DNA from: an uncultured Spirochaetota bacterium
GTDB lineage: Bacteria; Spirochaetota; Brevinematia; Brevinematales; JAOACQ01
DNA: 64,000 bases
NCBI GenBank assembly: GCA_963835575.1
Contig: CAWIGG010000002.1
Location: 1-64,000, forward strand
Reading direction: 5' to 3'
Shown here: positions 605 through 46,588 of the stretch, piece by piece
Position numbering within the stretch: position 1 is the first letter of the stretch
Layout of the letters: each line of letters begins with the position of its first letter
Translations under genes and position numbers: made by a program
The notes under the pieces: model-generated
Database searches by the model: none
What the model saw: only the letters and a program-made list of their open reading frames with translations
What the model was told of the DNA's origin: nothing

Positions 605-626
605 GTTGTACGAAGTTCGGCGGCAA

Positions 627-1229
627 TTATTTTTTCCAAGCTACTATTTTATTCAATGGATGCGTATGTTTAATACCACCTGGGTGTTCATCATCAAAAA
701 TGTAATTTTCATATAATTCAATTTTCCAATCATTATACAAAGTTTTTAATTCATCATCATTAAATAATCCTTTCATAAATTCAGCTAAATCTGGAGTAGG
801 CGCAATCTTGTTAGTAAAAACTACAACAACATTGACTCCATTATTGTTTGTATGTTGTTTCATTTCTTTAATTGATCTTTCCCATTCTTTTCTGTTTAAT
901 AAATGTAAAACACCATGAGAAATTATAAAATCATAATTTTGTTTAAATTCATAAGTTGATATATCTTGAACCCAAGCATTAATTTTAATTTTTTTATTCT
1001 TTGATATACTCTTTAATTTTTCAATTCCAGATTCAGAAATATCGAAAGCATCAACTGAAAATCCTTTTTCCGCTAAAAATAATGCATTCCTTCCTTCACC
1101 ACAGCCCATATCTAAAACCTTTATTTCTTTTGACAAAGTATTAGATAAATAAATAATTTCTTCACTTGGTTTGCCAAAAACGTTCGAATTTTTAACTTTG
1201 TAAGCTTCTTCCCAAAAAGGTTTATCCAT
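627..1229 (-). CDS. Class I SAM-dependent methyltransferase (TehB-like), cassette gene
   Basis: VLDMGCGEGRNALFLA motif I, DAFDIS. RBS GAGGT precedes the ATG at 1229. Confidence 0.85.
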   Translation of the reverse strand: MDKPFWEEAYKVKNSNVFGKPSEEIIYLSNTLSKEIKVLDMGCGEGRNALFLAEKGFSVDAFDISESGIEKLKSISKNKKIKINAWVQDISTYEFKQNYDFIISHGVLHLLNRKEWERSIKEMKQHTNNNGVNVVVVFTNKIAPTPDLAEFMKGLFNDDELKTLYNDWKIELYENYIFDDEHPGGIKHTHPLNKIVAWKK

Positions 1230-1270
1230 ATTTACCTCATTCTTCAATGAAAAGCCTGCCGCCGAATTTC

Positions 1271-1490
1271 GTACAACGGTCGGCGTTTGCGAAGTCGCTG
1301 AGGCTTAGAAAATGTTCACATTTTCAAGCCGAAGCGATTTGTCGAACCTTTTGTCCTTCTTCTCCGTCCTACCCGACAAAAGGTGAGACCGAGGAGCGCG
1401 CGCATCCAGCACCATTTTGTTCTGCTTCCTGTTTTTGCCCACAAAATGGTGCTGGAGAGCACGCACCGCAGCGCAAAAGCCGTGTTGGGC
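1271..1490 (-). repeat. attC-like site (220 bp, with extra internal hairpin)
   Basis: GTACAAC...GTTGGGC ends, complementary terminal arms, motifs shared with the other sites. Confidence 0.8.
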
Positions 1491-1510
1491 GAAGGTTTTG
1501 CCCATTATAA

Positions 1511-2254
1511 TTATTCGCCTTCTAAATGCCATTTTATAAATACAGAATTGTCATATTCATAAATTACTGTTTTACAATAAGTAATCGGACTGTTTTCATG
1601 ATATTCAATGAAATTATTTCCCGCTTTGTTGTATATGTTTAGGGAATAATCAATTTTAGTATTATCAGAAAAATATGTTCCTGATGAATTATTTGATGGA
1701 TATTCTTTTAATTGTCCGTCTCCATAAAATATATTAAAAATAATTAAATATGCTTGCTCAATTCTAATATCTTTTAATTGAATAAAATCTTCATCGTATG
1801 ATGATTCATTATCATGATGTGAATAAATAATTAAATTGCTATAATTAAAAGCATTAGTTTCAAAACCAGTGAATATTTGATCTTTATTTAATGAAAGATT
1901 ATTTTTGGCCCATTCAGGAAAAATTGAGATAAATTTATTTGTATTTGGATATTTGAGAAGATATCCATCAAATAAATATCCTATAATATTACTTATTTTT
2001 GTTGAAATCCAATAACCTTTCATTCCATCTATTTTATCAATTTTATCGATGCTATCTATTTTTATCTGTGTTGAAAATAAGACTTTTGATAGTATTTTTG
2101 AATTAATTGAAGGCTTTTCTCTTAGGAATAAGCCATTTTTGGCCCAAACATATAAATAATCATTAATTTTATAAAATAATTTTGGACTTCCTTTTGAAAA
2201 TAAAAAAGGAAAGGTGATAATTAGTAATAAAAATATTATTATAGATATTTTCAT
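1511..2254 (-). CDS. Exported SH3b-domain protein, cassette gene
   Basis: Signal peptide; YVWAKNGLFLREKPS...GYW...GYLFDGYL SH3b pattern. Confidence 0.7.
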   Translation of the reverse strand: MKISIIIFLLLIITFPFLFSKGSPKLFYKINDYLYVWAKNGLFLREKPSINSKILSKVLFSTQIKIDSIDKIDKIDGMKGYWISTKISNIIGYLFDGYLLKYPNTNKFISIFPEWAKNNLSLNKDQIFTGFETNAFNYSNLIIYSHHDNESSYDEDFIQLKDIRIEQAYLIIFNIFYGDGQLKEYPSNNSSGTYFSDNTKIDYSLNIYNKAGNNFIEYHENSPITYCKTVIYEYDNSVFIKWHLEGE

Positions 2255-2272
2255 CTTTTACCTCCAAGATGG

Positions 2273-3611
2273 CGGTCCGACTTCAAGACATAGGTTACAC
2301 TTTAGCTTCAGGACATCGGTAACCCTTTTTGAGTACAAAATGCCCTTGAATTACTATTTCAGTATAGACCTAAATATAAAAGTATTCAAGTCCATACTAC
2401 CTATCAGATTATTTTCAAACCACACATCCATAAAAGCTTTGCTTTTACTTTTTAAACCAATATGATAACCATCCAACGCATTTGTAATAAATACACGCCG
2501 ACCTTTATAATAAATGTAACCTCTGTTATTAACCTTTCTGCTGATGTATCCCTTGGGATATACAACCCAATCGGCTATCCCATCATAACTCCTAACCGAT
2601 TTTATATAGACCATTGCTGGTGTTTTCATTCCAAGGCTTTCATGCGGTCTTTCCTCGTTGAACTCTTTTCTCCATTCGTTGAATACTGCCTGGTGCAGCT
2701 TCAGGCTACCGCTGATTTTGTTTTCCAGTTCCTTTTTCATATCCAGGTGCATCCTTTCATGTGCTCCGTTCTGATAGGGAGAGCCGGGATCAATTCTGTC
2801 CAGCTTTATGCCCAGAGACAACCACCATGCTGATAGTCTGGTTAAACCAAGTAAACCCTGTGTACTGGCAAACGGCGGCCCATTATCGGATTTTATCATA
2901 CTCGGTAATCCATATTGCTTGAAGAGTCTGTCAAATTCAAATTTGACGGAACTAATATCACCTTTTTGCAGTATGGCTATGGATAAAATATATTTGGAAT
3001 AATCATCACGTACTGTAAGTGGTTCGCATCTTTCCTGCTCGGAGGTATACCACCAGCCTTTGAAATCCACTGTCCAGATATCATTTGGTTTTTTCGGTGC
3101 TACCCTGTTCTGTATTCTTTCCGGATGTATGTGTCGTCTTCTTTTCCTTAATTCTACAAATCCGGCCTTTTTCAATATCCTTTCGACAGTGCTTAATGAA
3201 GGAATTTTATTATCCGGGTGGTTCCTGACATAAACCGACCTGATTTTCTTAGGTCCCCAATTCTGCTTCGTTTGCTTGATACGGATGATCTCGCAGATTA
3301 TTTCTTCAGAAAGTTGATTAGGGCTTGAAAGCGGTTTCCTAGATTTTTCTTGAAGACCGGACAACCCTTCTTCATAAAACCTTTCTTTCCACTTATAACC
3401 GGTTTTTGTGCTGATCCCATATTCAGTACAAAGCTCGGTAAAGTTCACACCTTTTTGGAATGACTTTTCAATAAAAGCTAATTTCAGCTTCATGATATTA
3501 ACCTCCTTCCAGGGCATTGTCAGCCTCCTTAATGAGATCTGACCTAATTATACCTGGAAAGTGTTACCTATGTCCTGAAGCTTTTCCGTTACCTATGTCC
3601 TGATTTCACCA
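2273..3611 (-). mobile_element. IS481-family element
   Basis: Repeated subterminal TCA(A/G)GACATAGGT(T/A)AC motifs inverted at both ends. Exact ends are approximate; removing 2273-3611 restores the cassette-end inverted repeat. Confidence 0.8.
2354..3517 (-). CDS. IS481-family transposase
   Basis: MPWKE start, HTH, WTVDFKG, SDNGPPF, NGAHERMH (rve DDE core). Confidence 0.9.
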   Translation of the reverse strand: MPWKEVNIMKLKLAFIEKSFQKGVNFTELCTEYGISTKTGYKWKERFYEEGLSGLQEKSRKPLSSPNQLSEEIICEIIRIKQTKQNWGPKKIRSVYVRNHPDNKIPSLSTVERILKKAGFVELRKRRRHIHPERIQNRVAPKKPNDIWTVDFKGWWYTSEQERCEPLTVRDDYSKYILSIAILQKGDISSVKFEFDRLFKQYGLPSMIKSDNGPPFASTQGLLGLTRLSAWWLSLGIKLDRIDPGSPYQNGAHERMHLDMKKELENKISGSLKLHQAVFNEWRKEFNEERPHESLGMKTPAMVYIKSVRSYDGIADWVVYPKGYISRKVNNRGYIYYKGRRVFITNALDGYHIGLKSKSKAFMDVWFENNLIGSMDLNTFIFRSILK

Positions 3612-3621
3612 GCAAAATGGC

Positions 3622-3781
3622 GCCTAACGGTGCGGCTATACGACGTTTTGCGTCCCGTAGGGTTGGCGCGGCTTTTGCATCCCACGCAGCAAAAGACGTG
3701 ACAAAGCAAAATGTGTCCGCAGGACCGAGGAGCGCCCGGAGCCGCGCGAGGACGGAGCGGAACGTGTACGCCTTGTTGTAC
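3622..3781 (-). repeat. attC-like site (160 bp)
   Basis: GCCTAAC...GTTGTAC; very similar to 17730-17888. Confidence 0.85.
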
Positions 3782-3838
3782 GAAGTTTTCCGGGCCGAAT
3801 GTTTTACCAAAAAGCCGTAGCCAGGACGGCGGAGGCTT

Positions 3839-4129
3839 TTATCTGTTTTTTCTTTTTGGGTTCATAGGATACCATCCTTTTTCAACCCTCTTTCTCTGTT
3901 CGAAAATTTCTAATATACTCCATAAAGAGGAAAAGCCCGCCACGCTCAGGACGGCCCTAATGATATTATTAGGAATAAAAACAGAAGCTCCGCAAAGAAT
4001 TAAACCAAGACCTAATAATAAAGGCCAGATGGACACACTGAAATAGTATTCACCCCAAATTACTAATGGATGAAATAATCCGATGATTAAAAAAGCTGCT
4101 ATTCCAATTATTAATCCATCAAAAAACAT
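3839..4129 (-). CDS. Small membrane protein (DUF4491-like)
   Basis: GLIIG...IGLFHPLVI.GEYYF...KRVEKGWYP.NPKR pattern; three hydrophobic segments. Confidence 0.7.
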   Translation of the reverse strand: MFFDGLIIGIAAFLIIGLFHPLVIWGEYYFSVSIWPLLLGLGLILCGASVFIPNNIIRAVLSVAGFSSLWSILEIFEQRKRVEKGWYPMNPKRKNR

Positions 4130-4160
4130 AAAATCCTCATTTTTAATAATATTTGAATAA

Positions 4161-4195
4161 AACAACTGCGGCAGAATTACCTACCGCAGTTTGTT
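4161..4195 (-). terminator. Hairpin after katG
   Basis: AACTGCGG...CCGCAGTT stem just past the katG stop. Confidence 0.5.
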
Positions 4196-4216
4196 CTTAA
4201 TAAAATGTCCTTAATG

Positions 4217-6920
<2,704 letters not shown>

Positions 6921-6924
6921 AATG

Positions 6925-7326
6925 CTACTCCTTATCCTTTATATTTTTGCATTTTTCACAAAAACCATAAAAATTAATGGTGTGTCCGGTTATTATATTA
7001 TTTGTGTTTTCTTTTGCAATTATTTCAATATTATTTTGTAGCGGAATGTTAAAATCTTGAATAATTCCGCATTTTTCACAAACAAAATGATAATGCAAAT
7101 CGGTAATAGCATCATAATGTTCCACTCCATCACCAAATTCCCTGCATTTAACGAGCTTTTCTTCAATTAAAATCCTAATATTTCTGTAAACATTACCCAT
7201 ACTGACAGTAGGATTCTCTTTTCTTAAAACATCATAAATCCTTAATGCCGTTGGGTGATCAGAACTGCTTTTAATAATTTTTAAGATTTGATCTCTTTGC
7301 AAGCTTTTTCGTCTTTTTATCTCCAT
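6925..7326 (-). CDS. perR: Fur-family regulator, probably PerR
   Basis: HPTA, VYRN, HYHFVCEKCG and C-terminal CEKC; directly upstream of bfr-katG. Confidence 0.8.
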   Translation of the reverse strand: MEIKRRKSLQRDQILKIIKSSSDHPTALRIYDVLRKENPTVSMGNVYRNIRILIEEKLVKCREFGDGVEHYDAITDLHYHFVCEKCGIIQDFNIPLQNNIEIIAKENTNNIITGHTINFYGFCEKCKNIKDKE

Positions 7327-7335
7327 AAACTTCCT

Positions 7336-7382
7336 TATTAATAATCGTTACTAATATTAATACAATTAGTTTTTCCTGTCAA
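7336..7382 (-). promoter_or_regulatory. Sigma70 promoter with adjacent Per/Fur-type box
   Basis: Minus strand reads TTGACA-17-TAATAT, then imperfect palindrome TAGTAAC-G-ATTATTA, then RBS. Confidence 0.65.
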
Positions 7383-7455
7383 TATTATTTGAATATTTTT
7401 AGCCAGCCAAGGAAGGCTGGCGAATTTAATCACCAGCTTCGGCCCGGAAAATTTC

Positions 7456-7619
7456 GTACAACGGTACAGACAGACGACGTTTTGCGGCCCGTCAGGGTTG
7501 GCGCATTTTTTGCTTCCCCGTGCAAAAAATGTGACAAAGCAAAATGTGGCGCAGCCTGAGCACCGCAGCCCGTAGCTTCAGCGGAGGGCGAGGAGCGCAA
7601 CGTCTGTCTGTTGTTGGGC
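7456..7619 (-). repeat. attC-like site (164 bp)
   Basis: GTACAAC-GGT-ACAGACAGACG ... CGTCTGTCTGT-T-GTTGGGC. Confidence 0.85.
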
Positions 7620-7672
7620 GATGGACAGTCCGAATTTATAACAAAAGATAGGAGCCAAGGATGGCGATGATT

Positions 7673-7831
7673 TTAAATATCTTTTTTAGATACAAATTTC
7701 CATCCTTGTTTTTCTAATTCTTTTTCTTTTAATCTAAGCATATCCGCGAATTTTTTTATATCATTATCACATTCTTCAGATATTTTTTTTCCTGCTTCTC
7801 TTACTTCTTCAACAATTGGATCTGTATTCAT
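7673..7831 (-). CDS. Small 52-aa protein, probable antitoxin partner of PIN protein
   Basis: Read by hand: MNTDPIVEEVREAGKKISEECDNDIKK..., RBS GGAGG; below the ORF-track cutoff. Confidence 0.65.
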   Translation of the reverse strand: MNTDPIVEEVREAGKKISEECDNDIKKFADMLRLKEKELEKQGWKFVSKKDI

Positions 7832-7846
7832 ATTTTTCCTCCATTA

Positions 7847-8314
7847 TTATTTCAATTCTTCTGGAGTACAAATTTCAGGAGTTTTATACCCTTTTTGATT
7901 ATTCAATTTTAATAGTTGCTTTTTAAAATGTGCATTTGCCAAATGAGAACAATTCCAAGATAATAAATAATCCATTTCGTAATAAACACTATATGATACA
8001 TGATAAATATCTCTCACTATTTTTTCTGGAAAATTAAACTGTTTCATATAAAATTCAGCTATTATATCAATATTTTCGTCTTCTCTTAATACCTTCAAAT
8101 TTTTAATTTCATTTTGCCTTTTAACAGCATAATGCTTATCACCATTCGCTATTTCCTCTATTACAATAGGTGATACAAATAGTTCATATTTTTTGCGTTC
8201 AATATTCCACCAATCTTTAGTTATTATCTGCCTACTTAAAATGATTATATTTTCACTCTGTTCAGATACAAGATAGCTTGGAATTGTTGTTTCAATATAA
8301 ACCTTTTCTATCAT
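7847..8314 (-). CDS. PIN-domain (VapC-like) protein
   Basis: VYIETTIPSYL, VIEEI, DIYH, LLSWNCSHLAN, CTPEEL. Confidence 0.85.
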   Translation of the reverse strand: MIEKVYIETTIPSYLVSEQSENIIILSRQIITKDWWNIERKKYELFVSPIVIEEIANGDKHYAVKRQNEIKNLKVLREDENIDIIAEFYMKQFNFPEKIVRDIYHVSYSVYYEMDYLLSWNCSHLANAHFKKQLLKLNNQKGYKTPEICTPEELK

Positions 8315-8347
8315 TAATAAAACCCCAATACTGTTTAATTATATATT

Positions 8348-8376
8348 ATTATAATCTTTTTATTATTTTCCGGCAA
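8348..8376 (-). promoter_or_regulatory. Cassette-borne sigma70 promoter
   Basis: TTGCCG-17-TATAAT; same layout at 17656-17684 and 26431-26459. Confidence 0.7.
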
Positions 8377-8420
8377 GGATGCCGGATTATCTTTAAAAAA
8401 TAAGCTTCGGACTGTCTTTC

Positions 8421-8598
8421 GCCCAACGGTCGGCGTTTGCGAAGCCGGCGAGGCTTAGAGCTTTGCTCTTGCCGAGCCGGTTTGGTGAGCCCTGCGTTGC
8501 GCTACTTCCGGCCTACCCACGGGAGGGCGAACCCGAGCACCGCAGGCCGTAGCGACTGAGCGGAGGCCGAGGAGCGGAGCGCAAACGCCGAGTTGTAC
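8421..8598 (-). repeat. attC-like site (178 bp)
   Basis: GCCCAAC-GG-TCGGCGTTTGCG ... CGCAAACGCCGA-GTTGTAC. Confidence 0.85.
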
Positions 8599-8695
8599 GC
8601 AGTTGCACAAACTGTTTTATTATATTTCTTTCTTTTCTATAATTTCTTTGTATTTTAATTCTTCATTATCAGTTGTAATTTTAATATTTGCTTCA

Positions 8696-10091
8696 GAGTT
8701 ATAATAGAAAGTTGTGTATAGGAATAAATATTATAAAAAAGATGGCGTACCCTCTATAATTTATTTACGACAATAAACAAAAGGAGGAATACGCCATATG
8801 CCGAAGCACAACGAAGATTTTAAGCTCTTACAGGCTTTTAATCAAGATGAAACAGTAGAATTTTTATGTCTTGAAGAATTGGCAAGGATCGGGGCCAGGG
8901 AAATAATCAAGAAGGCTCTGGAAGATGAAATTAATGGGTTTCTTCAGGAGAGAGAGCATTTAACTATCGAAGACGGGAGAAAGGCAATAGTAAGAAATGG
9001 GTATCATAAAGCCCGTCAGATTCTCATTGGTGGAGGGGCTATTGATGTATGTATTCCGAGAACAAGGAACCGACTCGGAGGCGACAATTTTCAAAGCCTA
9101 ATAGTACCGCCGTATATGAGAAAAAGCCTGAGAATTGAGGAAGCCATTCCATTGTTGTATCTCTATGGAGTCTCAGAGATGGATATGGAGAATGCCTTGA
9201 GAGGATTGCTTGGTGAAGAAGCGAAAGGATTATCAGCCTCAAGTATAAGCAGAATGAAACAAGGATGGGGTAAAGAATATGATGAGTGGCGGACATCCGA
9301 TTTAAGCGATAAAAAGTATTGCTATATATGGGTTGACGGCATTTACTTCAATGTACAGGGCAGCGAAGACCGTTTATGCACTCTTGTAATGATCGGAGCC
9401 AATGAGAATGGTGAAAAGGAGATTATTCTTGTTGAAGAAGGTTACAGAGAGAATTCCGAGACTTGGTTAGGGATATTAAGAAACCTAAAAGAAAAAGGTT
9501 TGAAAGGTCCTATTCTTTTTATCGGAGACGGAAGCCTTGGATTCTGGAAAGCAGCCAAAGAAGTATATCCTGAATCCAGATGGCAGAGATGCTGGGTTCA
9601 TAAGATAAAGAACATTCTAAACAAGCTGCCCAAAGTATTACAGTCAAAGGCAAAAGAGATGCTTCATGAGATATGCAATGCTCCTGATAAGGATAATGCT
9701 ATCAAAGCTTTTGAATTATTCCAGGCGGTTTTTAATCCTAAATATCCAGCAGCTGTCGAATGTTTAGAAAAGGATTGGGAGCTTATGATCGAATTTTATA
9801 ACTGTCCGGCGGAACATTGGGTACATATCCGTACGACAAACGTAATAGAATCTACCTTCTCTACAGTTCGATTAAGAACTAAAAAGATGAGAGGCTGCGG
9901 AACCAGGGAAACGATTCTAATAATGGTCTATAAATTACTGGATAAGGCATCCAGGCGATGGAGAAAATTAAGAGGTTATGAAAAGATTTGCCTTGTATTG
10001 GAAGGCGCTGTTTTTGAGAACGGAGAGCTTGTAAAAAAGGCAGCATAAAAAAATGAGAGGGTATGTCATACACAACATTTGACAAAAACTC
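8696..10091 (+). mobile_element. IS256-family element
   Basis: IRs GAGTT...GTTGTGTAT; 9-bp TSD TTTGCTTCA at 8687-8695 and 10092-10100. Confidence 0.93.
8798..10048 (+). CDS. IS256-family transposase
   Basis: RNGY, WVDGIY, IGDGSLGFW, QRCWVHK, IRTTNVIES. Confidence 0.95.
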   Translation: MPKHNEDFKLLQAFNQDETVEFLCLEELARIGAREIIKKALEDEINGFLQEREHLTIEDGRKAIVRNGYHKARQILIGGGAIDVCIPRTRNRLGGDNFQSLIVPPYMRKSLRIEEAIPLLYLYGVSEMDMENALRGLLGEEAKGLSASSISRMKQGWGKEYDEWRTSDLSDKKYCYIWVDGIYFNVQGSEDRLCTLVMIGANENGEKEIILVEEGYRENSETWLGILRNLKEKGLKGPILFIGDGSLGFWKAAKEVYPESRWQRCWVHKIKNILNKLPKVLQSKAKEMLHEICNAPDKDNAIKAFELFQAVFNPKYPAAVECLEKDWELMIEFYNCPAEHWVHIRTTNVIESTFSTVRLRTKKMRGCGTRETILIMVYKLLDKASRRWRKLRGYEKICLVLEGAVFENGELVKKAA

Positions 10092-10724
10092 TTTGCTTCA
10101 ATTAAGTTTTCATTAACTATATTACCAATTAAATTAAATTGGAATAGTGATTCCTTTTTATAAATATTTATTTTTTTGTCTGTTATTAATATTTCATCAG
10201 AGTAATATTTTGTGTAATGAAGTTTATTTGAATTTATATCGATTATAAATGAAGATCTGTTACTAAGCATTGAATCTTTATTTGTTATTTTTGAAAGATC
10301 ATCTGAGATGTTTAAAAGTATAGAGTTACCTTTCCAGCCTATTCTTTTTACTTTGTTGGCTTCATTTGAAATTCTATCATCTATTTGTTTTTTCTCAACT
10401 CTTTTTAAGAATTTATTAAGTAAAATAGAACAACTTATGATAGCGATAACAATGCTGGCAAGTGATACAAGAATATTTATCAGATTAGACTTAAAATATT
10501 CAATTTCTACAAATTGTCTAATTATTAAAAAAATAATGAACTGTGATATAAAAACTGATAAAAAATAAGTTAATAAGAATTTTAATGCCCAACTCCACCC
10601 TTTCATGTTATTCTCTTTTGCTTTGTTGTAAAACCAAATAGAAATAACAGCTAATGCTACTACTACAATAATAATTCCCATAATTACCTCTTAAATTTAT
10701 TACAAAAATTGTTTGTGCAATTGC

Positions 10725-10899
10725 GTACAACGGTGCGGGCAAGCGACGTTTGCGAGCCTTAGAACTGCTCAGCAGTTCTAGGCGAGCAAATGTGGTGAGC
10801 CCTGCGTATTCTTCTGCGGCCTACCCCACGCAGGGCGAATCCTGAGCACCGCAGGCCGTCGCAACGGCCGAGGAGCGGAACGTTTGCCCGCTGTTGGGC
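10725..10899 (-). repeat. attC-like site (175 bp)
   Basis: GTACAAC-GGT-GCGGGCAAGCG ... CGTTTGCCCGC-T-GTTGGGC. Confidence 0.85.
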
Positions 10900-10922
10900 G
10901 ATGAAGCACCGCCAATTTAGTT

Positions 10923-37852: not shown

Positions 37853-37987
37853 ATATAAATTTAAAACATAAAAAGCCACTTTTTTAAAATATTTTAAGGA
37901 AGTATTAAAAATGGCAGCGCTAACTCTAATCTCCGCAGTTATTCCGGCGGAGACAAAGATGGGATTCTTTTTCCAAGCCATATATTA

Positions 37988-38762
37988 AGCTTTCCTCGGG
38001 CACTCCCGAAAACTCCGGCGCGGTCGCCGTCCTTCCACTGCCTGCGTTTTCGGGAGTGCCCTCGTCAAGCTTCCTGTTTTCAACCCTTTGAGCACTGCCT
38101 CACTCTTAACATAATTTTTCTTATGGTCAAGCAAGCGAATTAATCGCACTTTTTTATACTGATATTCCTCTATTTTTTTATAAAGTTATTTTATAATTTA
38201 TTCTTTTTTCTACCGATGGCTCAATGGAGTAAACGCCTGCCCATAAGAAGAAATTATGTTAAGTAGCAAAGGATTTAATAATTTTTATATCCTGCATCTT
38301 TCTTATTCTCTAAAATCTTTTCTTTATTGTTGCTTTCTCAACCTTTGCTAACGTTCGGCGCGCTCAAAGGGTTGAAAACAGGGCTGGCGCATTTCGTTAT
38401 TATTTTCCACCCTGCCCGCCCGTATAGAATGAAGCAAAAAGCATAGCTTTTTTTATGAGCTGTCCCGTCCGTCCCGTAGATATTCTTTTTCTCTTTCAGG
38501 TTCCAATTTCGGGACTCCCCTTTGTCCTTTTTCACTTGTCAGTACCGTTTTAAAACCGTGCTCTTTAAATATTTTCACCCTGCCTTTTTTATTATACCGT
38601 GAGAAAAATAAAATAGTCCACTTCGCCAAGGGTAAAGTCGCAAGCTCCCGATTTAAAAATATTTTATTGTCTTAAAAACAGAAATGCTTTTTTTAAAAAC
38701 CAAGGGTCTTTATTACAGGTTAAAATATTTTTAAATCGCCCTTGCTATTTTATTTTTCTCGC
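37988..38762. other. Non-coding region with several long nested inverted repeats
   Basis: GGGCACTCCCGAAAAC/GTTTTCGGGAGTGCCC; GTTTTCAACCCTTTGAGC/GCTCAAAGGGTTGAAAAC; GAGAAAAATAAAATAG/CTATTTTATTTTTCTC. Confidence 0.75.
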
Positions 38763-38822
38763 TGGTGTTGTATTTAGTCAGGGTTAGAAATTTTATTATA
38801 ACTCAAATTTTAGGAGGTATTT

Positions 38823-39203
38823 ATGTCAGCTTATATTGTCAGCAAAGATCACATTTCTGCGTTAGTCAGTTTTTGTAATGCGAAAAATGTTTATGTGTAT
38901 TATGATGGGAAAAAGTTTGATGTCACGAATCTTGACGCTATTGGTCAGATTCTCGTGAATGAAAACTACCGTTCAGTTAATACCCGGTATAGTTCAAACG
39001 ATGCCCCATTTGTTTACGAGTTTCAATATCTGCAACGGCATTTTACGCTTATTCAGATTATTAAACTATGTCATTGCTATAATTATCAGTCATGTGAAAC
39101 GGAAGATTATTATGAATCTCTTGCCTATGCGATTGTGAGAGGTATCGAATCTCATGCTGTCCGGTTATTACCTGGCTATGAAGAAGCGGAATGGGGTTTA
39201 TAG
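38823..39203 (+). CDS. Hypothetical protein of phage/plasmid type
   Basis: Strong RBS AGGAGGT; EN.RSVN.RY, YQSCE, LPGYE.A.W motifs. Confidence 0.7.
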   Translation: MSAYIVSKDHISALVSFCNAKNVYVYYDGKKFDVTNLDAIGQILVNENYRSVNTRYSSNDAPFVYEFQYLQRHFTLIQIIKLCHCYNYQSCETEDYYESLAYAIVRGIESHAVRLLPGYEEAEWGL

Positions 39204-39256
39204 TTTTGAAGCGTTATTGAAACGGAATTGAAGCGGAGAAGGTCTCCTTAAGAAAT

Positions 39257-39298
39257 AAAAAAGCCCCTGCATTTTATAGATTTATGCAGGGGTTTTAG
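39257..39298. terminator. Bidirectional terminator between convergent genes
   Basis: AAAAAAGCCCCTGCAT...ATGCAGGGGTTTT. Confidence 0.7.
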
Positions 39299-39321
39299 TT
39301 TGCGATATCCGGCCGGGATTA

Positions 39322-39651
39322 TCAGCTCGGCATAAACGGAGTTGTAGGAGCTGTCCCATTGTTTGCGTTTTTGTAGTTTATATATCCGCTCACATACAGG
39401 TTAAAACCGCTCATCTGCTGACCACTTGCAGCACTATTCCAGGCGTCTTTTGTCGCCTGTGTTTCCGCCTGCCAGGCCGCTACCGCCGCCGTAAAATAGT
39501 CCCTGACTTTAAGCTGATTTTCAGTCTGGGGATTTGAAGGTACAGTATACTGCCTGCTATAGTTGATCCCCTTCCATTTTGCGAAAACCATCGTATCGGC
39601 AAATGTGCCGCTTGCGTCAAGGGACATCAAAGGCCCTGTTACTTTTGCCAT
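39322..39651 (-). CDS. Hypothetical protein (SG...WKG..Y.R...NP.T..Q..R..F family)
   Basis: RBS AAGGAGGT; coherent GC-richer ORF. Confidence 0.7.
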   Translation of the reverse strand: MAKVTGPLMSLDASGTFADTMVFAKWKGINYSRQYTVPSNPQTENQLKVRDYFTAAVAAWQAETQATKDAWNSAASGQQMSGFNLYVSGYINYKNANNGTAPTTPFMPS

Positions 39652-40159
39652 AGTATTTCCACCTCCTTAAAGGATATAATTTTAAACAAATATTTTTTAC
39701 CCTTTATTAATAGTCATTTTTAAGGGTATCGAAATGAAATAAATGGTTGAATTTAATCGGCAGGGAAGAATGACTGAATAAAACAAACAGGTTACATACG
39801 GAAAGTTAATAAATATTATCGGAAAGCAAGATATTATGGAGATCAATGCTGGGGAATAATAGGTTAAAAAACCTATTACGAACTATTTAAAACCCTTAAA
39901 AACTATTTGTAAAGCTCATTGGAAGTTTTTAAAACCATAAAAATATTTATGGTATTATTTATGATTATATTTATATTCTCTGTTTTCCTTGACAGTACCT
40001 TAAATTTGTCTTAATATTTAGGCATACTGTTAACAATACTATTCAAATACTTGACGGAGAGAATTTTCCGTGAAATCGATTTTGAAATAGAAATATCTGT
40101 TCTATTTATCATATTCTTAATTAGAATTCCGAATATTAAATATGAAGGGGGCGTAGCTT

Positions 40160-40708
40160 ATGATTAGTTATAAATTTAATGAAACAAAAGCAATTCAGTT
40201 AATCGCTTTTCTTCTTAAGCAAGATAATACAAAAGATTATAATAATTATACAAAAATTATCAAACTTTTATACTTGGCAGATAGAGAAGCATTAAATAGG
40301 TGGGGAAGATCAATAACAAAAGATATTTATGCAAATCTTCCAGCGGGGCCGATTGTAAGTGAAACTTATGATTTAATTAAGGAAATGAAAAAAGGGGCTA
40401 ATGAATTTATTTGTTCTAAAAATGAATATGATTTGGCATTAGTAAGTGATCCTGGTGATGATGAATTAAGTAATGCAGAAATTAAGCTACTTAGAGAAAT
40501 ATCTGAAAAATATAAGGATAAAACATATCAAAAAATGGTTGATGAGGTTCATCGTCTTCCTGAATGGGTTGATCCAAGACCTAGAGGGAAAAAATCATTA
40601 TCAGTTGAAAATATTTTAGAAGTGTTAAATAAAACAGATGATGAAATTAAAGAAATTGAAGTATCAAACAAAGAAGAAAACTATATAATTAATGTCTTAG
40701 GTTTATAA
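40160..40708 (+). CDS. Panacea (DUF4065/SocA-like) antitoxin
   Basis: KIIKLLYLADRE.L..WGRSIT.D.Y..LP.GP, H.LPEW.DP. Confidence 0.8.
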   Translation: MISYKFNETKAIQLIAFLLKQDNTKDYNNYTKIIKLLYLADREALNRWGRSITKDIYANLPAGPIVSETYDLIKEMKKGANEFICSKNEYDLALVSDPGDDELSNAEIKLLREISEKYKDKTYQKMVDEVHRLPEWVDPRPRGKKSLSVENILEVLNKTDDEIKEIEVSNKEENYIINVLGL

Positions 40709-40709
40709 G

Positions 40710-41087
40710 ATGAAAAAAGGGGGGACATTCTACGGCAACCCAGAAGGAGCCTCTCAACCCCATCTACACTGTATAATTACAGACTCATCCGAGCATAAAG
40801 AAAAAGGTAAATGTCTTTTTGTTCATATGATTTCATATAATGAAGGTAATCCGTATTCAGACCGTTCTTGTATTTTAAATAAAGGTGATCACCCATTTAT
40901 TACACGTCCAACTTGCATAAATTATGCTGCTGCAACGGAAATAGATTTAGAGAATCTTGAATTTGCTGTTAGTCGATGTTTGTGTGAAGAAAATGCCCCT
41001 CTATCCTTAGAAATCTTAGAGAGAATACGTGAAGGGGCAAGACTTTCTGATCATTTACCTAGAAAATATAAATACTTATTCGAATAA
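40710..41087 (+). CDS. Probable toxin paired with Panacea antitoxin (PemK/MazF-like fold suspected)
   Basis: Starts 1 bp after the antitoxin stop; HL..II, D.SC.L.KGDHPFI motif. Confidence 0.55.
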   Translation: MKKGGTFYGNPEGASQPHLHCIITDSSEHKEKGKCLFVHMISYNEGNPYSDRSCILNKGDHPFITRPTCINYAAATEIDLENLEFAVSRCLCEENAPLSLEILERIREGARLSDHLPRKYKYLFE

Positions 41088-41431
41088 AATAAAGAAATTT
41101 AATCATTCAAAGAAAGAATTATGAATTTTCATCATAATAAAATAAGCAATAATTATTATTTCTAAATATTGTGTTAATTTTTCGACACTATAAAAAGGAT
41201 TAAACAGAGTTTTTAGAGTCCGTAAAAAAGGCATTGAATATATTAAAATTAATAGTAAAACAATAAAATAACTATAAGGTTCCATTGTAAAACAAAAAAA
41301 TAACAAAAAAGTAAACGATATTAGAAATCTTATAATAATTACTTTTCCCTAAAAATGTTATTGTTTTGTTACCAAATAGGTTTTATAATTCACTTATCTT
41401 ATTGCTATTATATATATTAACAACTCTATAA

Positions 41432-41509
41432 GCAAAAACTGTGACAAAGCAAAATGTGGGCGCATCCCCGCAGGGCCGATAGGCCCGTAGCGTTTACACC
41501 GGGTTGTAC
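41432..41509 (-). repeat. Right part of split attC-like site (attR side)
   Basis: GCAAAAACTGTGACAAAGCAAAATGTGG...GTTGTAC continues the 26505-26592 half. Confidence 0.85.
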
Positions 41510-41530
41510 GAAGTTTGCCGGGCCGAATTT

Positions 41531-42058
41531 CTATTTAAATATTTCATTAGCATCAATTTCAGCTGGCAGATTATCTTTTGTTAAATATCCTGGTAATCCC
41601 CACCATTGATTATAGTTATCATCATAATAATTAATAATTATTCTAATCTGTTCGTTATACAATTTTAATGAATCTAATAAATTCTGATAAATATATTTCT
41701 TTTCTTCAATTGATTTAACTTGAGCAAATCCAGCATCTTCTGGTGCAGGTTGAGGCATAACTATGGATTTTTGGGAAATATTCTCTTTAATATTATTATA
41801 ATAATTTTTTTCTATTGTTGATCTTTCATTTACAAATTTGTCTAATTCTTTAATATAAAGTGTATAAAATACAAATGAATGCTTCAGATTTTCCTCCCTT
41901 TTAACCAATTCCCTATAGAATTTAATACACATTTCATAGTTATATCTATAATTATTGAATGAAAATATAGTTGGTTTCTTTAAAGATTTAAAACATTTAT
42001 TATTTAGGTTGAGAATATCATAAAATTTTGGAATTAAATTACTATTTTCTTTTTCCAT
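41531..42058 (-). CDS. Hypothetical cassette protein
   Basis: Single ORF filling the cassette; ATG at 42058 after GGGGA. Confidence 0.7.
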   Translation of the reverse strand: MEKENSNLIPKFYDILNLNNKCFKSLKKPTIFSFNNYRYNYEMCIKFYRELVKREENLKHSFVFYTLYIKELDKFVNERSTIEKNYYNNIKENISQKSIVMPQPAPEDAGFAQVKSIEEKKYIYQNLLDSLKLYNEQIRIIINYYDDNYNQWWGLPGYLTKDNLPAEIDANEIFK

Positions 42059-42118
42059 AAATGTTCCCCTTATATAACAATTTAAAATCGAATAACCAGC
42101 TTCGGCCCGGCAAATTTC

Positions 42119-42276
42119 GTACAACGGTGCGCGTAGAAGAAGTTTGGCGGCCCGTCAGGGTTGGCGTCTTTTTTGCATCCCACGCGCAAAAAAGATGACA
42201 AAGCCAAATTTGCCGCAGGCCGAGCACCGCCCGGAGCCGCGCGAGGACGGAGCGGAGCTTCTACGCGTTGTTGAGT
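42119..42276 (-). repeat. attC-like site with IS1182 inserted at its GTT end
   Basis: GTACAAC-GGT-GCGCGTAGAAG ... CTTCTACGCGT-T-GTT|GAGT. Confidence 0.85.
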
Positions 42277-43994
42277 CTGTCGAAAAAGTGATATTTAATG
42301 TAAATTATTATCGATATAGCTTAAAATAATGAATGAAATAAATCAATAGCGGAAGGTTATATGGCAAGATACAAGACAGTTAATTATGAGCAGATGGAAA
42401 TGATACCGCTCAATTTTTCAGATCAGCTGATCGAAGGAACATATGAACACACACTCAATTTCCTAATCGAGGAAAAGGCTGACCTTTCCTGTTTTGATAT
42501 AAATTATAAAAATGATAAAACAGGCTCGAAAGCGATTTCTCCGGCAATTCTTCTGAAAATAATCCTTTTTGCCTATTCGAAAGGTATTACTACATCACGC
42601 AGGATTGAGGAAGCTTGCCGGGTGAATGTCATCTTCAAAGCCCTGTCCGGGAATACCGTTCCAGACCATTCCACTATAGCCGCTTTTGTTACCGGTATGA
42701 AAGACCGGATTAAAATAGTATTTCAGTTTGTGCTGATGGTCTGTTCTTCTGCGGGATTGATCGGCGGGGACATGTTCGCCGTTGACGGCTGTAAATTGCC
42801 TTCAAACGCTTCTAAAGAATGGAGCGGTACATTCAAAGACCTGAAAAAGAAACAGGAAAAGTTTGAAAAGCTGGCGGCATTTCTACTGGAAAAACACGCG
42901 CAAGCTGACTGCTCCGGCGAAAATGAAAAGTCTAAAGCGCTTCAAAAAAGATCGGAAAAAATACGGAAGAAAGCGGAGAAAATCGATGCCTTTCTCAAAT
43001 CCCAGAATCCCAAATACGGCAAGCGGGGACGTGAAAACCAATCGAATATTACCGATAACGAAAGCGCGAAAATCAAGAGTTCCCACGGTGTGATACAAGG
43101 TTATAATGGACTTGCGGTAGTGGATTCAAAGCATCAGGTGATTACCGCGGCGGAAGCTTTTGGTTTAGGCCAGGAAGGGGAAGTATTGAAGCCGATGGTT
43201 GAAATAACGGAGGAAAATTTAAGCGTGATAAAAGGAGAAACAAATCCGCTGGAAGGAAAAACAATACTGGGGGACACGAATTATTTCAGCGAAGAAAATC
43301 TAAAATATCTGGCGGAAGAAAAGAAGATGGAAGCTGTGATACCGGACAATCAATTTCGAGGGAGGGATGAACGGTTTACCGATCGGGGAAGGTTCAAGCC
43401 GAAACCGATGAAATACCGGGAACACGATTTTGAAAAAAATGAAGCTGATAATACTTATATATGCCCGAATGGAAAAATATTAAGCTATAAGGGATACCAG
43501 AGGCAATTGAGTAATTTCGGCCATAAATATCAGGCCAGGCAGGCGGATTGTTCAAAATGCGGGAAAAGGGGACAATGCTTAAAACATCCCGATAAGACAA
43601 GGCAAAGAACATTATATCTGGTGGACAAAAGAGGGGATAAAAACTATTCAAAAGAAATGGTAAATAAAATTGATCTGCCGGAAATCAGGGATTTGTACAG
43701 CCGGAGGATGGGAATAATTGAGCCGGTATTCGGTAACATCCGTTCTTGTAAAGGTATGGACCGTTTTACGCTCAGGGGTAAGAGTAAGGTTAATATCCAG
43801 TGGCTTTTGTTCTGTATAGTGCATAATATTGGTAAAATCCAGATATTTGGTAAGATTTAAGGGGGTGTTCATAGCCATAATACCGGCTTGAAATTGGAAA
43901 AATGGAAAATCCGGATAGAGAAATGAAAAATGATACTCTATCCGGCTTTCAGAAGACAGTTTTTATTCTCGTTTTTGGCTTTTTCGACAGGGTC
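42273..43994 (+). mobile_element. IS1182-family element, complete
   Basis: IRs GAGTCTGTCGAAAAAG / CTTTTTCGACAGGGTC; GTT on both flanks. Confidence 0.9.
42361..43860 (+). CDS. IS1182-family transposase
   Basis: LLKIILFAYSKGI.TSR.IE, PDHSTIA, AVDGCK, QGYN, YICP.GK, IEPVFG.I. Confidence 0.92.
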   Translation: MARYKTVNYEQMEMIPLNFSDQLIEGTYEHTLNFLIEEKADLSCFDINYKNDKTGSKAISPAILLKIILFAYSKGITTSRRIEEACRVNVIFKALSGNTVPDHSTIAAFVTGMKDRIKIVFQFVLMVCSSAGLIGGDMFAVDGCKLPSNASKEWSGTFKDLKKKQEKFEKLAAFLLEKHAQADCSGENEKSKALQKRSEKIRKKAEKIDAFLKSQNPKYGKRGRENQSNITDNESAKIKSSHGVIQGYNGLAVVDSKHQVITAAEAFGLGQEGEVLKPMVEITEENLSVIKGETNPLEGKTILGDTNYFSEENLKYLAEEKKMEAVIPDNQFRGRDERFTDRGRFKPKPMKYREHDFEKNEADNTYICPNGKILSYKGYQRQLSNFGHKYQARQADCSKCGKRGQCLKHPDKTRQRTLYLVDKRGDKNYSKEMVNKIDLPEIRDLYSRRMGIIEPVFGNIRSCKGMDRFTLRGKSKVNIQWLLFCIVHNIGKIQIFGKI

Positions 43995-44013
43995 GTTATA
44001 TGCCGTTGCCCAA

Positions 44014-45054
44014 TCATTCTTTTAACCCGCTTTCTGTAATTTTTAATATTACCGATTTAACAATGTCCAAGAATACAGATATTTCTTTTTCAGAATATGA
44101 CTTACTAATTACCCACTTTAGATTTGATTGAGCATTAACAAAATAACCTGTCTTTACAAGATTCTCTTTATAGTAATCTATAATAATTTCAGGATTATTG
44201 ATTTTCTTTTGAATTTCTTCAAAACCGGAATAAATACTTTGTTTAAAAACTGATTTTGGAGGATAACCAAATAATAATGCGATTTTTTTATCACTTATAT
44301 TTAGATTTAAAGAATATCCTTTTGAACCCCAAATAAACATTAAGGTATTGACTTTTGCAAACTCGATAATTTTATTGAAAACCAATTTTCCATTTTCATC
44401 TAAAGATTCTAAAAAGTCTTTCTGATTTACTTTTGGTAATGAAGCAGATTGAACATTTTGTTTTTTATATTCTTCATCGCCTATTATCATATCTGAAGAA
44501 ACGACTTTTTCTCCATTTTTTGATTCAAAATATTTAAATTCTAAACAATTAATATCAATTCCTTTTTGTCTTAAGAAAACAGCAGTTTGTTTAATTTCTT
44601 TGCTAATTTCCTGAGCGATAATTAGTAAACGCATATTTTTATTAAATGATACTTGTTGATCCGGTTCTTGAATAAAATATTGATTGTGATAATCTTCTAA
44701 ATTTGATTCTTCTCCATAATATTCTTTAAATATTTCATTTAATTGCTCATAATTCAAATTTTCAATAAATGATGCATATTCAAGTATTTGTGCGATGGTT
44801 TCTCTGGGTGTTTTATCTCTTTTTAGTTCAATGACAACAACATTGCCAATTTTATCTATTCCCAATAAGTCAATATAAGCATTGAAATTAGTTGATACCT
44901 GTCTTCCAATAATTAATATTTTTGTATTTTCAAAGAAATAATCCGGATTCTTTTCCAGTAAAATTTCTAAATCTTTTTCTATATTATTAATTTTGAAATT
45001 TTGTTCTTTGTAAGGAGTGAAATTTCCTTCATTGTTTATTGTAAATAATTTCAT
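44014..45054 (-). CDS. NucS/DUF91-like PD-(D/E)xK endonuclease, cassette gene
   Basis: EKDLE, IGRQ, IDLLGID..G.VVVIELKR, AQILEYA. Confidence 0.75.
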   Translation of the reverse strand: MKLFTINNEGNFTPYKEQNFKINNIEKDLEILLEKNPDYFFENTKILIIGRQVSTNFNAYIDLLGIDKIGNVVVIELKRDKTPRETIAQILEYASFIENLNYEQLNEIFKEYYGEESNLEDYHNQYFIQEPDQQVSFNKNMRLLIIAQEISKEIKQTAVFLRQKGIDINCLEFKYFESKNGEKVVSSDMIIGDEEYKKQNVQSASLPKVNQKDFLESLDENGKLVFNKIIEFAKVNTLMFIWGSKGYSLNLNISDKKIALLFGYPPKSVFKQSIYSGFEEIQKKINNPEIIIDYYKENLVKTGYFVNAQSNLKWVISKSYSEKEISVFLDIVKSVILKITESGLKE

Positions 45055-45086
45055 TTGTTTCCTCCAAAAGCTGATTGGGCAATGGC

Positions 45087-45272
45087 ATATAACGGCACAG
45101 ACAAGCCGACGTTTTTTCGGCTTAGAGCCAGGCTTGCCGCTCTTAGCCGAAAAAATGTGGTGAACTTTTTGTCCTTCTCCTCCGGCCTACTTCTCAAAAA
45201 GTGAACCTGAGGAACGGAACCCGGAGCGACTGAGCGTAGGGTGAGTACCGGAACGTTTGTCTGTTGTTAGCT
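45087..45272 (-). repeat. attC-like site (186 bp)
   Basis: ATATAAC-GGC-ACAGACAA ... TTGTCTGT-T-GTTAGCT. Confidence 0.85.
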
Positions 45273-45447
45273 GCTGTGCCGGTTGCCGTGTATCATGAGC
45301 ATATTTTATTTTTATTCCAAGTTTTTTTGATAGTTTTTCAACATAATTATGAGTTTCTTTAACAATTTTTAATAAGTCATAATCATTTTCAGCAGACATT
45401 TTTCTTTGAACAATTTCTTTATTTTTGATAATTTCATCTAAAATCAT
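45187..45447 (-). CDS. Small partner of PIN protein (stop lies inside attC)
   Basis: Same position as 7673-7831 relative to a PIN gene; RBS GGAGG. Confidence 0.6.
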   Translation of the reverse strand: MILDEIIKNKEIVQRKMSAENDYDLLKIVKETHNYVEKLSKKLGIKIKYAHDTRQPAQQLTTDKRSGTHPTLSRSGFRSSGSLFEK

Positions 45448-45451
45448 AAAT

Positions 45452-45931
45452 TTATTCCTCCTTATTTAGTAATTCTAAAGGTGTGATAATTTCAGGTATA
45501 TACAATCCCAATCTAGTATTAATAATTCTGATGTGTTGTTTTTTATTTCCATTTGCCAAATGAGTACAATTCCAGGTCAATAAAAAATCGATTTTATAAT
45601 AAGACGCATAAGATAAATGAAGTGCATCTCCACCTAATTCTTTAGGCATTAAATAATTGTCAATATAAATCTGTGCGATATCAAGAACATCTTTATTTGG
45701 AGGTAAAACGGTAAGTTTCAAAGCGTTTTGAAGAACTTGTTCTTTTCTTGGATAATTACTTTCTCCAAGCTCTTTTAATGTTTCTTCTGATAAGGATACT
45801 TTATAAAATTTCTTTTCTTCTTTCCACCATTTTTTTGTGATATCAATAAGAAATTGAATCTCTTCCCTTTCATCATAAAGAAAACTCAGAACTGTAGAAT
45901 CTAAATAAACAGATTTCATAAAATATCCCAC
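45452..45931 (-). CDS. PIN-domain (VapC-like) protein
   Basis: VYLDSTVLS, DALHL, LLTWNCTHLAN, ITPLEL. Confidence 0.85.
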   Translation of the reverse strand: MGYFMKSVYLDSTVLSFLYDEREEIQFLIDITKKWWKEEKKFYKVSLSEETLKELGESNYPRKEQVLQNALKLTVLPPNKDVLDIAQIYIDNYLMPKELGGDALHLSYASYYKIDFLLTWNCTHLANGNKKQHIRIINTRLGLYIPEIITPLELLNKEE

Positions 45932-46024
45932 TTATTTTTTATTAATTATAATACTAAAATGAAATTATCACACTTTTTTTATTGCGTTTTTTGTTTTATA
46001 ACAAAGCCAGGCAACCGGCATTTC

Positions 46025-46200
46025 AGCTAACGGTGGCGGACAAACGACGTTTGCAAGCCTTAGAGCCAGGCTTGCCGCTCTTAGGCTTGCAAATGTGGTG
46101 AACCTTTTGTCTTTCTCCTCCGTCCTACCCAACAAAAGGTGAACCCGAGGAGCGCAGGCGTCGCAACGCCGAGCACCGCAGCGTTTGTCCGCTGTTGGGC
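46025..46200 (-). repeat. attC-like site (176 bp)
   Basis: AGCTAAC-GGTG-GCGGACAAACG ... CGTTTGTCCGC-T-GTTGGGC. Confidence 0.85.
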
Positions 46201-46588
46201 GATGGCGGCCAATTCTCTGAATGAATAAGATTTTCCGCAGGCAATTATTTCGCTGAATTTCTCAGTCTTTCTATAAATATCATTACTTGACAACGGCACT
46301 TATTTTCTTACATATGCCTGCGACCATAACCCTTCTCTTTATTCATTATAATCAAAAATGCCCATAATAATTTTATCAAACAGCCTTTATTTTTTCAAAT
46401 AAGAATTCTTAAAAAATAATATTTTCAAGTAAAAAAAACAACATAAAAATAATTTTATTTCTATTATAACTAATTTATAAGCCAAATATCTAAATTATCT
46501 CTTACAACCTGAACTACGCAGAGAAATATCCGTCCTTCCCGGGCATTTTTGAATGTTTATTATACAGCATTGGCCGCTTTCGCCCAAC
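46194..46588 (-). other. First cassette, ORF-less, with candidate promoter
   Basis: Bounded by GTTGGGCGAnnGCGGCCAAT inverted repeats; no credible ORF; TTGGGC-17-TATAAT at 46587-46559. Confidence 0.7.

Follow-up and report, generated by a model that had tools for sequence, protein, structure and literature searches.

Organization of the array and its cassettes

The window analysed here, a stretch of 64,000 nucleotides, is the start of contig C2 in the genome of an uncultured Spirochaetota bacterium (GenBank assembly GCA_963835575.1; 4.39 Mb in 7 contigs), and it contains an integron-like array of gene cassettes next to a tyrosine recombinase gene, in which most cassettes begin and end with long inverted repeats (the arms) that match each other while differing in sequence from cassette to cassette. 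The recombinase (353 aa; 46684-47745, − strand) is related to integron integrases and XerA, and is transcribed towards the array, which spans 46588 down to base 1 and continues past the contig edge. All cassette genes of the array are on the − strand within the window. The units are AT-rich (about 22-33% GC), except for one unit of about 50% GC, and they are separated by GC-rich elements, the candidate recombination sites.

There are 11 units in the window, and nine of them have long paired ends, with stems of 20-28 bp and one to four mismatches each. A preliminary description of this DNA had listed eight start/end pairs, all of which are present where it placed them and with the letters that it quoted; we identified a ninth (17882-17906 / 26487-26511). 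It had also stated that every intact cassette carries inverted ends of 20-28 bp: this holds for nine of the 11 units, and does not hold for 1484-3628, whose ends pair over 8 bp only, or for 10893-17736, whose ends are unmatched.

Starting from the recombinase, the first cassette body (46194-46588, 395 bp) has no open reading frame (ORF) of at least 80 aa; its arms (46194-46213 / 46569-46588) pair over 20 bp with two mismatches, T.T at position 10 and G.T at position 11 (positions are counted inward from the cassette ends), and a 99.3% identical copy of this cassette lies at the far end of contig C2. It is followed by a two-gene cassette (45266-46031; arms 45266-45287 / 46010-46031, 22 bp, three mismatches at positions 9-11), a cassette with a 346-aa ORF (43995-45093; arms 43995-44022 / 45066-45093, 28 bp, four mismatches, 22 solid, G.T at position 11), a cassette at 41503-42125 (arms 41503-41527 / 42101-42125, 25 bp, one mismatch, G.T at position 11), and an 8.6-kb multigene cassette (17882-26511; 25 bp, three mismatches, G.T at positions 6 and 11 and T.G at position 21). 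Further along are the cassette at 8592-10731 (arms 8592-8618 / 10705-10731, 27 bp, three mismatches, 21 solid, G.T at position 11), which is interrupted by an IS256-family element (transposase at 8798-10048, + strand); a two-gene cassette (7613-8427; arms 7613-7634 / 8406-8427, 22 bp, two mismatches, T.T at position 10 and G.T at position 11); a four-gene cassette (3775-7462; arms 3775-3799 / 7438-7462, 25 bp, one mismatch, G.T at position 11); and, last before the contig edge, a cassette encoding a TehB-like methyltransferase (605-1277; arms 605-625 / 1257-1277, 21 bp, one mismatch, G.T at position 11). All of these are oriented on the − strand, as are the two exceptional units.

The four genes of 3775-7462 (about 50% GC) encode a Fur-like regulator, a ferritin-like protein, a catalase-peroxidase and a DUF4491 protein; this cassette is an oxidative-stress module that was captured whole into an otherwise AT-rich array. 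The 159-aa product of 45266-46031 shares 36% identity with the product of 7613-8427, and these two homologous cassettes have diverged too far for the descent of their arms to be traced. Of the two exceptions, 1484-3628 is interrupted by an IS481-family element, and 10893-17736, which contains two large ORFs and an IS21-like insertion, has arms from two different families and may represent two cassettes fused by loss of a site; no cognate partner of its start arm was seen beside a core among the matches listed by a search allowing two mismatches, in which chance hits are abundant. Insertion sequences are thus found in both poorly fitting units, yet the well-matched 8592-10731 has one too.

In some cassettes the 5′ arm is directly followed on its inner side by a promoter-like box (TTGCCG, 17 nt, TATAAT), and a terminator-like hairpin adjoins the inner side of the 3′ arm; the promoter-like and terminator-like stretches are located at 17655-17685 and 26430-26460 (− strand), and at 3805-3840 and 17915-17950. 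Cassettes with a promoter-like box of their own may therefore not depend on a platform promoter.

Pairing of the ends is specific to each cassette

We compared cassette starts with the reverse complements of cassette ends. At positions 8-24 the own ends of the nine well-paired cassettes match at 12-16 of 17 positions, against an off-diagonal mean of 6.6, and high off-diagonal values are confined to a single arm family shared by several units. For a genome-wide test, cassettes were delimited by the site profile (described below), and eight consecutive cassettes from a related genus (G006) were added, which gave 29 unique cassettes with 26 arm families from this genome (G000) and G006; exact duplicates and four starts in which the end of an IS1182-family element follows the GTT were left out. 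Own ends match at 7.92 of 10 positions in the interval 13-22, as compared with 2.74 of 10 for ends of different families. Permuting the assignment of ends 100000 times gave sums no higher than 124, against 206 for the observed assignment. The proposal that pairing is kept while the sequence varies among cassettes is thereby borne out.

Changes between related arms point in the same direction: the arms of 3775-7462 and 41503-42125 differ on both sides at position 14 (T to G), and the one-sided changes in 17882-26511 yield G.T or T.G on the + strand. The shared arm family, TTT[T/G]CCGGGCCGAA, includes both of these cassettes and 17882-26511, the end arm 17712-17736, and a member at the far end of C2. 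It flanks at least four unrelated cargos, together with a shared flank that reaches 35-65 bp further inward, which suggests either that cargo is exchanged while the end module stays constant, or that one site family has been used repeatedly.

Units that carry genes and end in inverted repeats of 20-28 bp could also be small non-autonomous transposons with terminal inverted repeats. Such transposons would be expected neither to vary their repeats among units (26 families here, rather than one shared repeat) nor to begin every arm exactly at the AAC/GTT core of a folded site; the units moreover lack flanking target duplications and stand head to tail beside a tyrosine recombinase, so we give this explanation hardly any credence.

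A strand-asymmetric wobble at position 11

A mismatch near positions 9-11 had been noted before, and it can be placed more exactly: all nine stems in the window are mismatched at position 11, with G at the cassette start opposite T at the cassette end on the + strand. Three window stems have an additional T.T at position 10, and one has a mismatch at position 9. Among the stems of G000 and G006 with at least seven of ten matches further out, position 11 is mismatched in 24 of 24, and G at the start versus A in the reverse complement of the end is the commonest mismatch type overall (28 cells). On the strand opposite the genes, the bases at position 11 almost always form a G.T wobble, which corresponds to an A.C mismatch on the other strand. 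The wobble-bearing strand is the counterpart of the “bottom” strand of classical integron cassettes; in all six sites tested, the predicted fold of this + strand is more stable than that of the gene-sense strand.

The arms stand on either side of each gene or gene group without entering the ORFs, so that they could alternatively act at the level of RNA, by pairing in a read-through transcript and bracketing each gene for processing or stability. The direction of the wobble disfavours this: because the G.T is on the antisense strand, the sense RNA would carry an A.C mismatch at the same position. In addition, the promoter-like box seems to lie inside the 5′ arm in some cassettes, which would leave that arm outside the transcript. 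We regard an RNA-level element as very improbable.

Candidate recombination sites and the attI-like junction

Each GC-rich element is bounded, on the + strand, by a start ending in RYYYAAC and a finish beginning with GTTRRRY. A profile built from 21 of these elements was used to search the whole genome with nhmmer, and it gave 48 hits, with AAC and GTT at the model ends; the lengths between the cores are 124-209 nt, plus 14 nt for the cores themselves. Within the window, attC-like sites supported by both nhmmer and the predicted fold are located (+ strand; lengths between AAC and GTT) at 1271-1490 (206 nt), 3622-3781 (146 nt), 7456-7619 (150 nt), 8421-8598 (164 nt), 10725-10899 (161 nt), 42119-42272 (144 nt), 45087-45272 (172 nt), and 46025-46200 (162 nt; nhmmer E = 1.4e-26, with a branched fold). 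The site at 17730-17888 (145 nt, + strand) is flanked on both sides by arms of one family, which allows the full stem to form within the array itself. One more site, recognized by nhmmer, is split by a 14.85-kb insertion, so that its two parts extend over 26505-41509 (+ strand), with direct repeats at 26579-26592 and 41432-41445.

For nine sites we predicted the secondary structure, which comprises, from the outside inward, the core pair, a 2-nt bulge right after the AAC, an inner stem of about 10-13 bp (continuous in most of the nine), and a multiloop with two or three hairpins. No protruding (extrahelical) base was predicted in the inner stem of any of these nine folded sites. Bulges of 3 nt on the “wrong” arm of the inner stem had been considered and were dropped, as folding pairs those bases in a local hairpin of the multiloop.

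As they stand in the array, the sites pair poorly at the core (4-7 of 7 positions). Cognate arms, when brought together, are predicted to pair with about -20 kcal/mol, and in five of six units, reconstituting the site from the end arm, the cassette’s own site and the start arm raises the predicted stability by 13.8-17.4 kcal/mol over that of the in-array site; the sixth gains nothing, since it shares its arms with a neighbour and already has the full stem in the array. The preliminary description held that the full stem is available only to the excised circle or to cognate ends. Joining a cassette’s own ends does reconstitute it in the folding of five of six units, but the stem also exists where neighbours share arms.

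Poor pairing at the in-array core, strong pairing of cognate arms and the shortness of many cassettes (395-1100 bp) would also fit the single-unit idea of the preliminary description, in a model where the two ends of one cassette pair across the gene in single-stranded DNA. Each in-array site would thereby gain a fully paired right-hand arm, which would direct excision to exactly one unit. However, the 3.7- and 8.6-kb units keep their arms equally well, though pairing over such loops is unlikely. We consider this model improbable as the explanation of the arms; it is compatible with a role of the arms in the recombination hairpin, and not exclusive of it.

Between the stop codon of the recombinase gene and the first cassette is a putative attI-like junction region (46589-46683, − strand), where the + strand reads AAC|TCTATATA. 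The junction AAC|TCTWTATA recurs beside three recombinase paralogues, including those on contigs C6 and C7. The identity of the mobile unit can be seen from a 428-bp cassette with eight copies in the genome: in the + orientation of the profile, the 156-nt site on its left-hand side is at least 99% identical in all eight copies, while the copies are preceded by five different neighbours and the right-hand site differs (51-71% identity) in four of the seven copies having one. Since this cassette keeps one site behind varied neighbours, the mobile unit is the cassette body plus the site downstream of its genes. The predicted crossover is at G|TT on the gene-sense strand (AA|C opposite), which is the classical cassette form.

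The recombinase

We identified matches to PF00589 (E = 4e-37, contiguous) and PF13495 in the recombinase next to the array. Its scores against the integron integrase models are below their cut-offs (TIGR02249, 213.7 bits against 265; NF040815, 215.8 against 220), and positions 173-234 of the TIGR02249 profile are unmatched. Among solved structures, the Vibrio integron integrase IntI4 and archaeal XerA are closest to it in fold: residues 236-262 of the recombinase (27 aa) stand opposite IntI4 residues 171-239 (69 aa), whereas XerA aligns in one piece. Similarly, 270 residues of the recombinase align over 313 codons of IntI1. Judged from these alignments, the IntI-specific additional domain (around patch III, the I2 helix) is absent. 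The residues R200, K225, R293, H316 and Y325 are invariant in 53 homologues.

The same 53 homologues share an N-terminal domain of about 65 residues (encoded at 47550-47745), in which W36 and W43 are invariant. It is modelled as strand-strand-helix-strand-strand-helix (predicted local distance difference test, pLDDT, around 90); hits of this domain to the HARP family are weak and were obtained in homologues only, and a fold search with the whole protein gave no separate match for it. This domain could read the outer stem or a branch point.

Even the closest relatives in the protein collection reach an identity of only about 50%; they come from archaeal and bacterial metagenome genomes; those with names are annotated “site-specific tyrosine recombinase/integron integrase”. 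Relatives at 41-43% identity were also observed on plasmids of Clostridium estertheticum and C. tagluense, where most of the matches overlap a gene annotated as an IS91-family transposase or as a transposase.

Comparison with integron cassettes and occurrence in other genomes

We checked if cassettes of classical integrons have comparable stems. Six class 1 cassettes from two plasmids pair over 12, 8, 6, 9, 13 and 7 consecutive nucleotides and then stop, and a pairing of 9-11 nt is given in the available text of PMC2727003; the figure of only about 7 bp for canonical cassettes, put forward in the preliminary description, was therefore too low. Integron integrases scoring above the TIGR02249 cut-off were found in 42 of 401 sampled genomes of the phylum, and in none of 11 genomes of the family to which this genome belongs. 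As a second control we used stretches beside true IntI genes, keeping nine of 16 stretches (from eight spirochaete genomes) that had at least five linked candidates. None of the 166 candidate cassettes that a permissive pipeline gave in these stretches has at least eight of 11 matches at positions 12-22, the runs being 7-10 nt long, as compared with 36 of 89 when the same pipeline was applied to the arrays of this genome. These are filtered counts; chain-building from 7-nt seeds was discarded, as it gave many chance chains in AT-rich DNA.

Related arrays conserve the arms, whose absence from them the preliminary description had counted against its own inference: they are present in other genera of the family (G006, G007 and G008), in another family of the phylum (G050), and in loci from many phyla. 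Arms with G/A at position 11 are present in G006, G007, G008 and G050. The site profile of this genome, searched with nhmmer against 14 stretches, recovered arrays in G006, G008 and G050 and a weak signal in G007; it found nothing in the stretches of G005, G011, G013, G017, G052, G053, G059 and G060, several of which are at contig ends.

A survey of 80 public loci encoding relatives of the recombinase yielded 45 GTT-anchored inverted pairs. In 22 of these the first nine bases are identical and position 11 has A at the start versus G in the reverse complement of the end, on the recombinase-sense strand; the reverse orientation at position 11 occurs in none of the 45. All other 63 three-letter anchors together gave 16 and 14 cases in the two orientations, among 1231 pairs. 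By record title, the loci with GTT-anchored pairs belong to Nitrospirae, Atribacteria, Bacillota, Ignavibacteriota, Bacteroidota, Gemmatimonadota and Spirochaetes, and to the archaeal Altarchaeum and Micrarchaeota.

These data bear on a possible origin of the arms as a footprint without present function: genes would have been inserted into an empty unit that already existed, consisting of a long palindromic site and a short outer loop, and the arms would be what remains of it. An ORF-less 395-bp cassette with full arms does exist and has been duplicated, and one arm family surrounds at least four cargos, with shared 35-65 bp flanks that include the promoter-like and terminator-like modules. 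Against a mere footprint, all of the 26 distinct arm families keep their pairing, position 14 has been altered on both sides between two related arm pairs, and the G.T at position 11 is fixed and strand-asymmetric across phyla (22 versus 0 in direction). The last of these, a wobble kept across phyla in one direction, argues for continuing selection on the folded bottom strand, and we think a footprint origin unlikely.

Proposed mechanism

On the sequence evidence above, we favour the reading, with somewhat better than even confidence, that the paired ends would form the outer segment of the hairpin at which an integron-like cassette system recombines, with the crossover inside a long stem. The crossover would lie about 20-28 bp inside the stem, as compared with 7-11 bp from the base in classical integrons. 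As the stem is divided by the crossover, its halves are carried separately, one at the cassette start and one immediately ahead of the site of that cassette; with the halves at opposite ends of the cassette, the full stem forms only when a cassette’s own ends join (in the excised circle), or where neighbours share arms.

Two parts of the stem may have different roles. The sequence is semi-conserved (GTT-RRRY-G-M-W-G) at positions 1-9, as far as the mismatch at 10-11, and this stretch would provide, on the folded bottom strand, a duplex arm of about 10-11 bp for the Xer-like recombinase to bind. An arm of about 10-11 bp is the length bound by Xer-type enzymes, as known from dif sites. The G.T wobble at the outer edge of this arm, which forms a pair on the bottom strand but is mismatched (A.C) on the top strand, may help to mark the reactive strand. 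It would thus take the place of the extrahelical bases, which in classical integrases are read by the domain absent here. Beyond the wobble, the variable GC-rich clamp could stabilize the folded site of the free circle, thereby favouring capture at the attI-like site over re-excision.

Several observations weigh against this proposal, or limit it. Excision must use the in-array hybrid sites with non-cognate arms, of which the proposal gives no account. Two of the 11 units in the window are without the long stem, and the first cassette on contig C6 is fully matched at positions 10-11. When the arms are folded alone the energy difference between strands is small (mean 0.7 kcal/mol; the + strand is more stable in 16 of 21 cases and less stable in five of 21), so the argument on strand choice rests on base identity and not on energy. 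Unrelated cargos share an arm family and the 35-65 bp flank, so part of the pairing is accounted for by inheritance of a common end module. Finally, with respect to the controls, the six class 1 cassettes were chosen by eye from the listed pairs, by their fit to annotated genes, and the candidate sets of the IntI control and of this genome both contain chance pairs.

A broader interpretation is more tentative. The wobble-marked outer stem may be the strand-choice and capture device of a second, widespread integron-like lineage, present in bacteria and archaea, that would represent the Xer-like stage out of which classical integrons, with their extrahelical bases and I2 helix, evolved. As part of the same conjecture, which we hold to be possible but not the likelier case, the recombinases of this lineage might never have acquired the hairpin-reading domain of IntI, or might have lost it, and the folded site might mimic a full duplex core site, with an arm of about 11 bp closed by the G.T.

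Other arrays and inserted elements in the genome

Further arrays are found at the far end of C2 and on C6, C7, C3 and C5. Three arrays adjoin recombinase paralogues, located at C6:427162-428166, C7:4740-5744 and C1:10047-11015, the last of which contains a stop codon. The array at the far end of C2 (C2:2028742-2045372) is in inverted orientation; its last part, after which no recombinase gene follows, repeats at 99.3% identity the site, the ORF-less first cassette and the AAC|TCTATATAAA junction. Outside the arrays, a lone cassette with paired arms was observed at C2:1248084-1250440, about 2.3 kb downstream of a separate Xer-like gene (C2:1244999-1245802).

An IS1182-family element (42270-43994, + strand; NF033551, 277 bits; ends at 42277-42288 and 43979-43990) is inserted exactly at the GTT of the right-hand core of a site, and has GTT on both sides. 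The right-hand part of a second IS1182-family copy (1-604, + strand) abuts the GTT at 605, where the array runs off the contig. Genome-wide there are six sites with an IS1182-family end directly after the GTT (also on C2, C3, C5 and C6), and the element looks like an insertion sequence that targets the recombination core. The 14.85-kb insertion (26593-41445) that splits one site is flanked by the 14-bp direct repeats at 26579-26592 and 41432-41445, and carries its own tyrosine recombinase gene (26722-27816) and large restriction-modification-like ORFs.

Comparison with known systems

Similar to classical integrons, the array has head-to-tail and mostly co-oriented cassettes, RYYYAAC and GTTRRRY cores and a G|TT crossover; its sites fold as imperfect hairpins, the cassette start is complementary to the left core of its own site, the unit moves as a gene plus its downstream site, and the recombinase has a tyrosine recombinase catalytic domain. 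It is different in the cognate stem of 20-28 bp with a fixed G.T at position 11, and in its branched sites with 124-209 nt between the cores, as compared with 57-142 nt for classical sites in the available text of PMC2727003. The Treponema sites, as described in the accessible part of PMC3607928, are 63-68 bp long with a protruding G, whereas no extrahelical base is predicted in the inner stem here. The recombinase lacks the IntI-specific domain, and its gene is co-oriented with the cassettes (− strand) rather than divergent, a layout known from the “reverse” integrons of Treponema (PMC3607928, PMC9668308). The array is integron-like, yet differs in four features: the IntI-specific domain, the extrahelical bases, site length and gene orientation. 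No description of a fixed wobble, or of long outer stems specific to each cassette, was found in the literature covered, to which supplements and subscription papers did not belong; it mentions only 9-11 nt and “pairing beyond the boxes”.

The rAID-1 clusters of Bacteroidales are also arrays headed by an XerD-like recombinase (Ross et al., bioRxiv 10.1101/471110). As far as the available text of that preprint goes, they share with our array a 5′ XerD-like recombinase, at least two co-directional low-GC genes and repeated intergenic sequences that were described as reminiscent of integrons; the likeness is one of layout. Folded sites, cores and paired cassette ends are not mentioned in that portion of the preprint.

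CTX-phi, which uses XerCD, is the only known hairpin substrate without extrahelical bases according to the accessible part of PMC4792948, where its attP stem, free of such bases, is said to mimic duplex DNA and to undergo a single strand exchange. Like that system, the array combines an Xer-type enzyme without an I2-like domain with a folded single strand as the presumed substrate, and it may work in a similar way. The difference, going by the same source, is that CTX-phi is a phage genome using host enzymes at dif, and not a cassette array with a dedicated recombinase. An Xer-like ancestor of integrons was put forward there as a speculation.

Integron biology rests on an IntI-specific domain that reads the unpaired bases of a short hairpin. 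Here, in contrast, a recombinase without that domain stands beside sites without such bases, which have a long stem split by the crossover and one fixed G.T. If the mark and the clamp are functional, they would constitute a second means of strand selection and of promoting circle capture, and the array would be a concrete candidate for the Xer-like intermediate that is only imagined in the available text of PMC4792948. They would also make it possible to locate cassette boundaries and arrays by a simple rule, namely that own ends are complementary and have G/A at position 11, and arrays located in this way would be expected to escape the tools keyed to IntI and to short sites.

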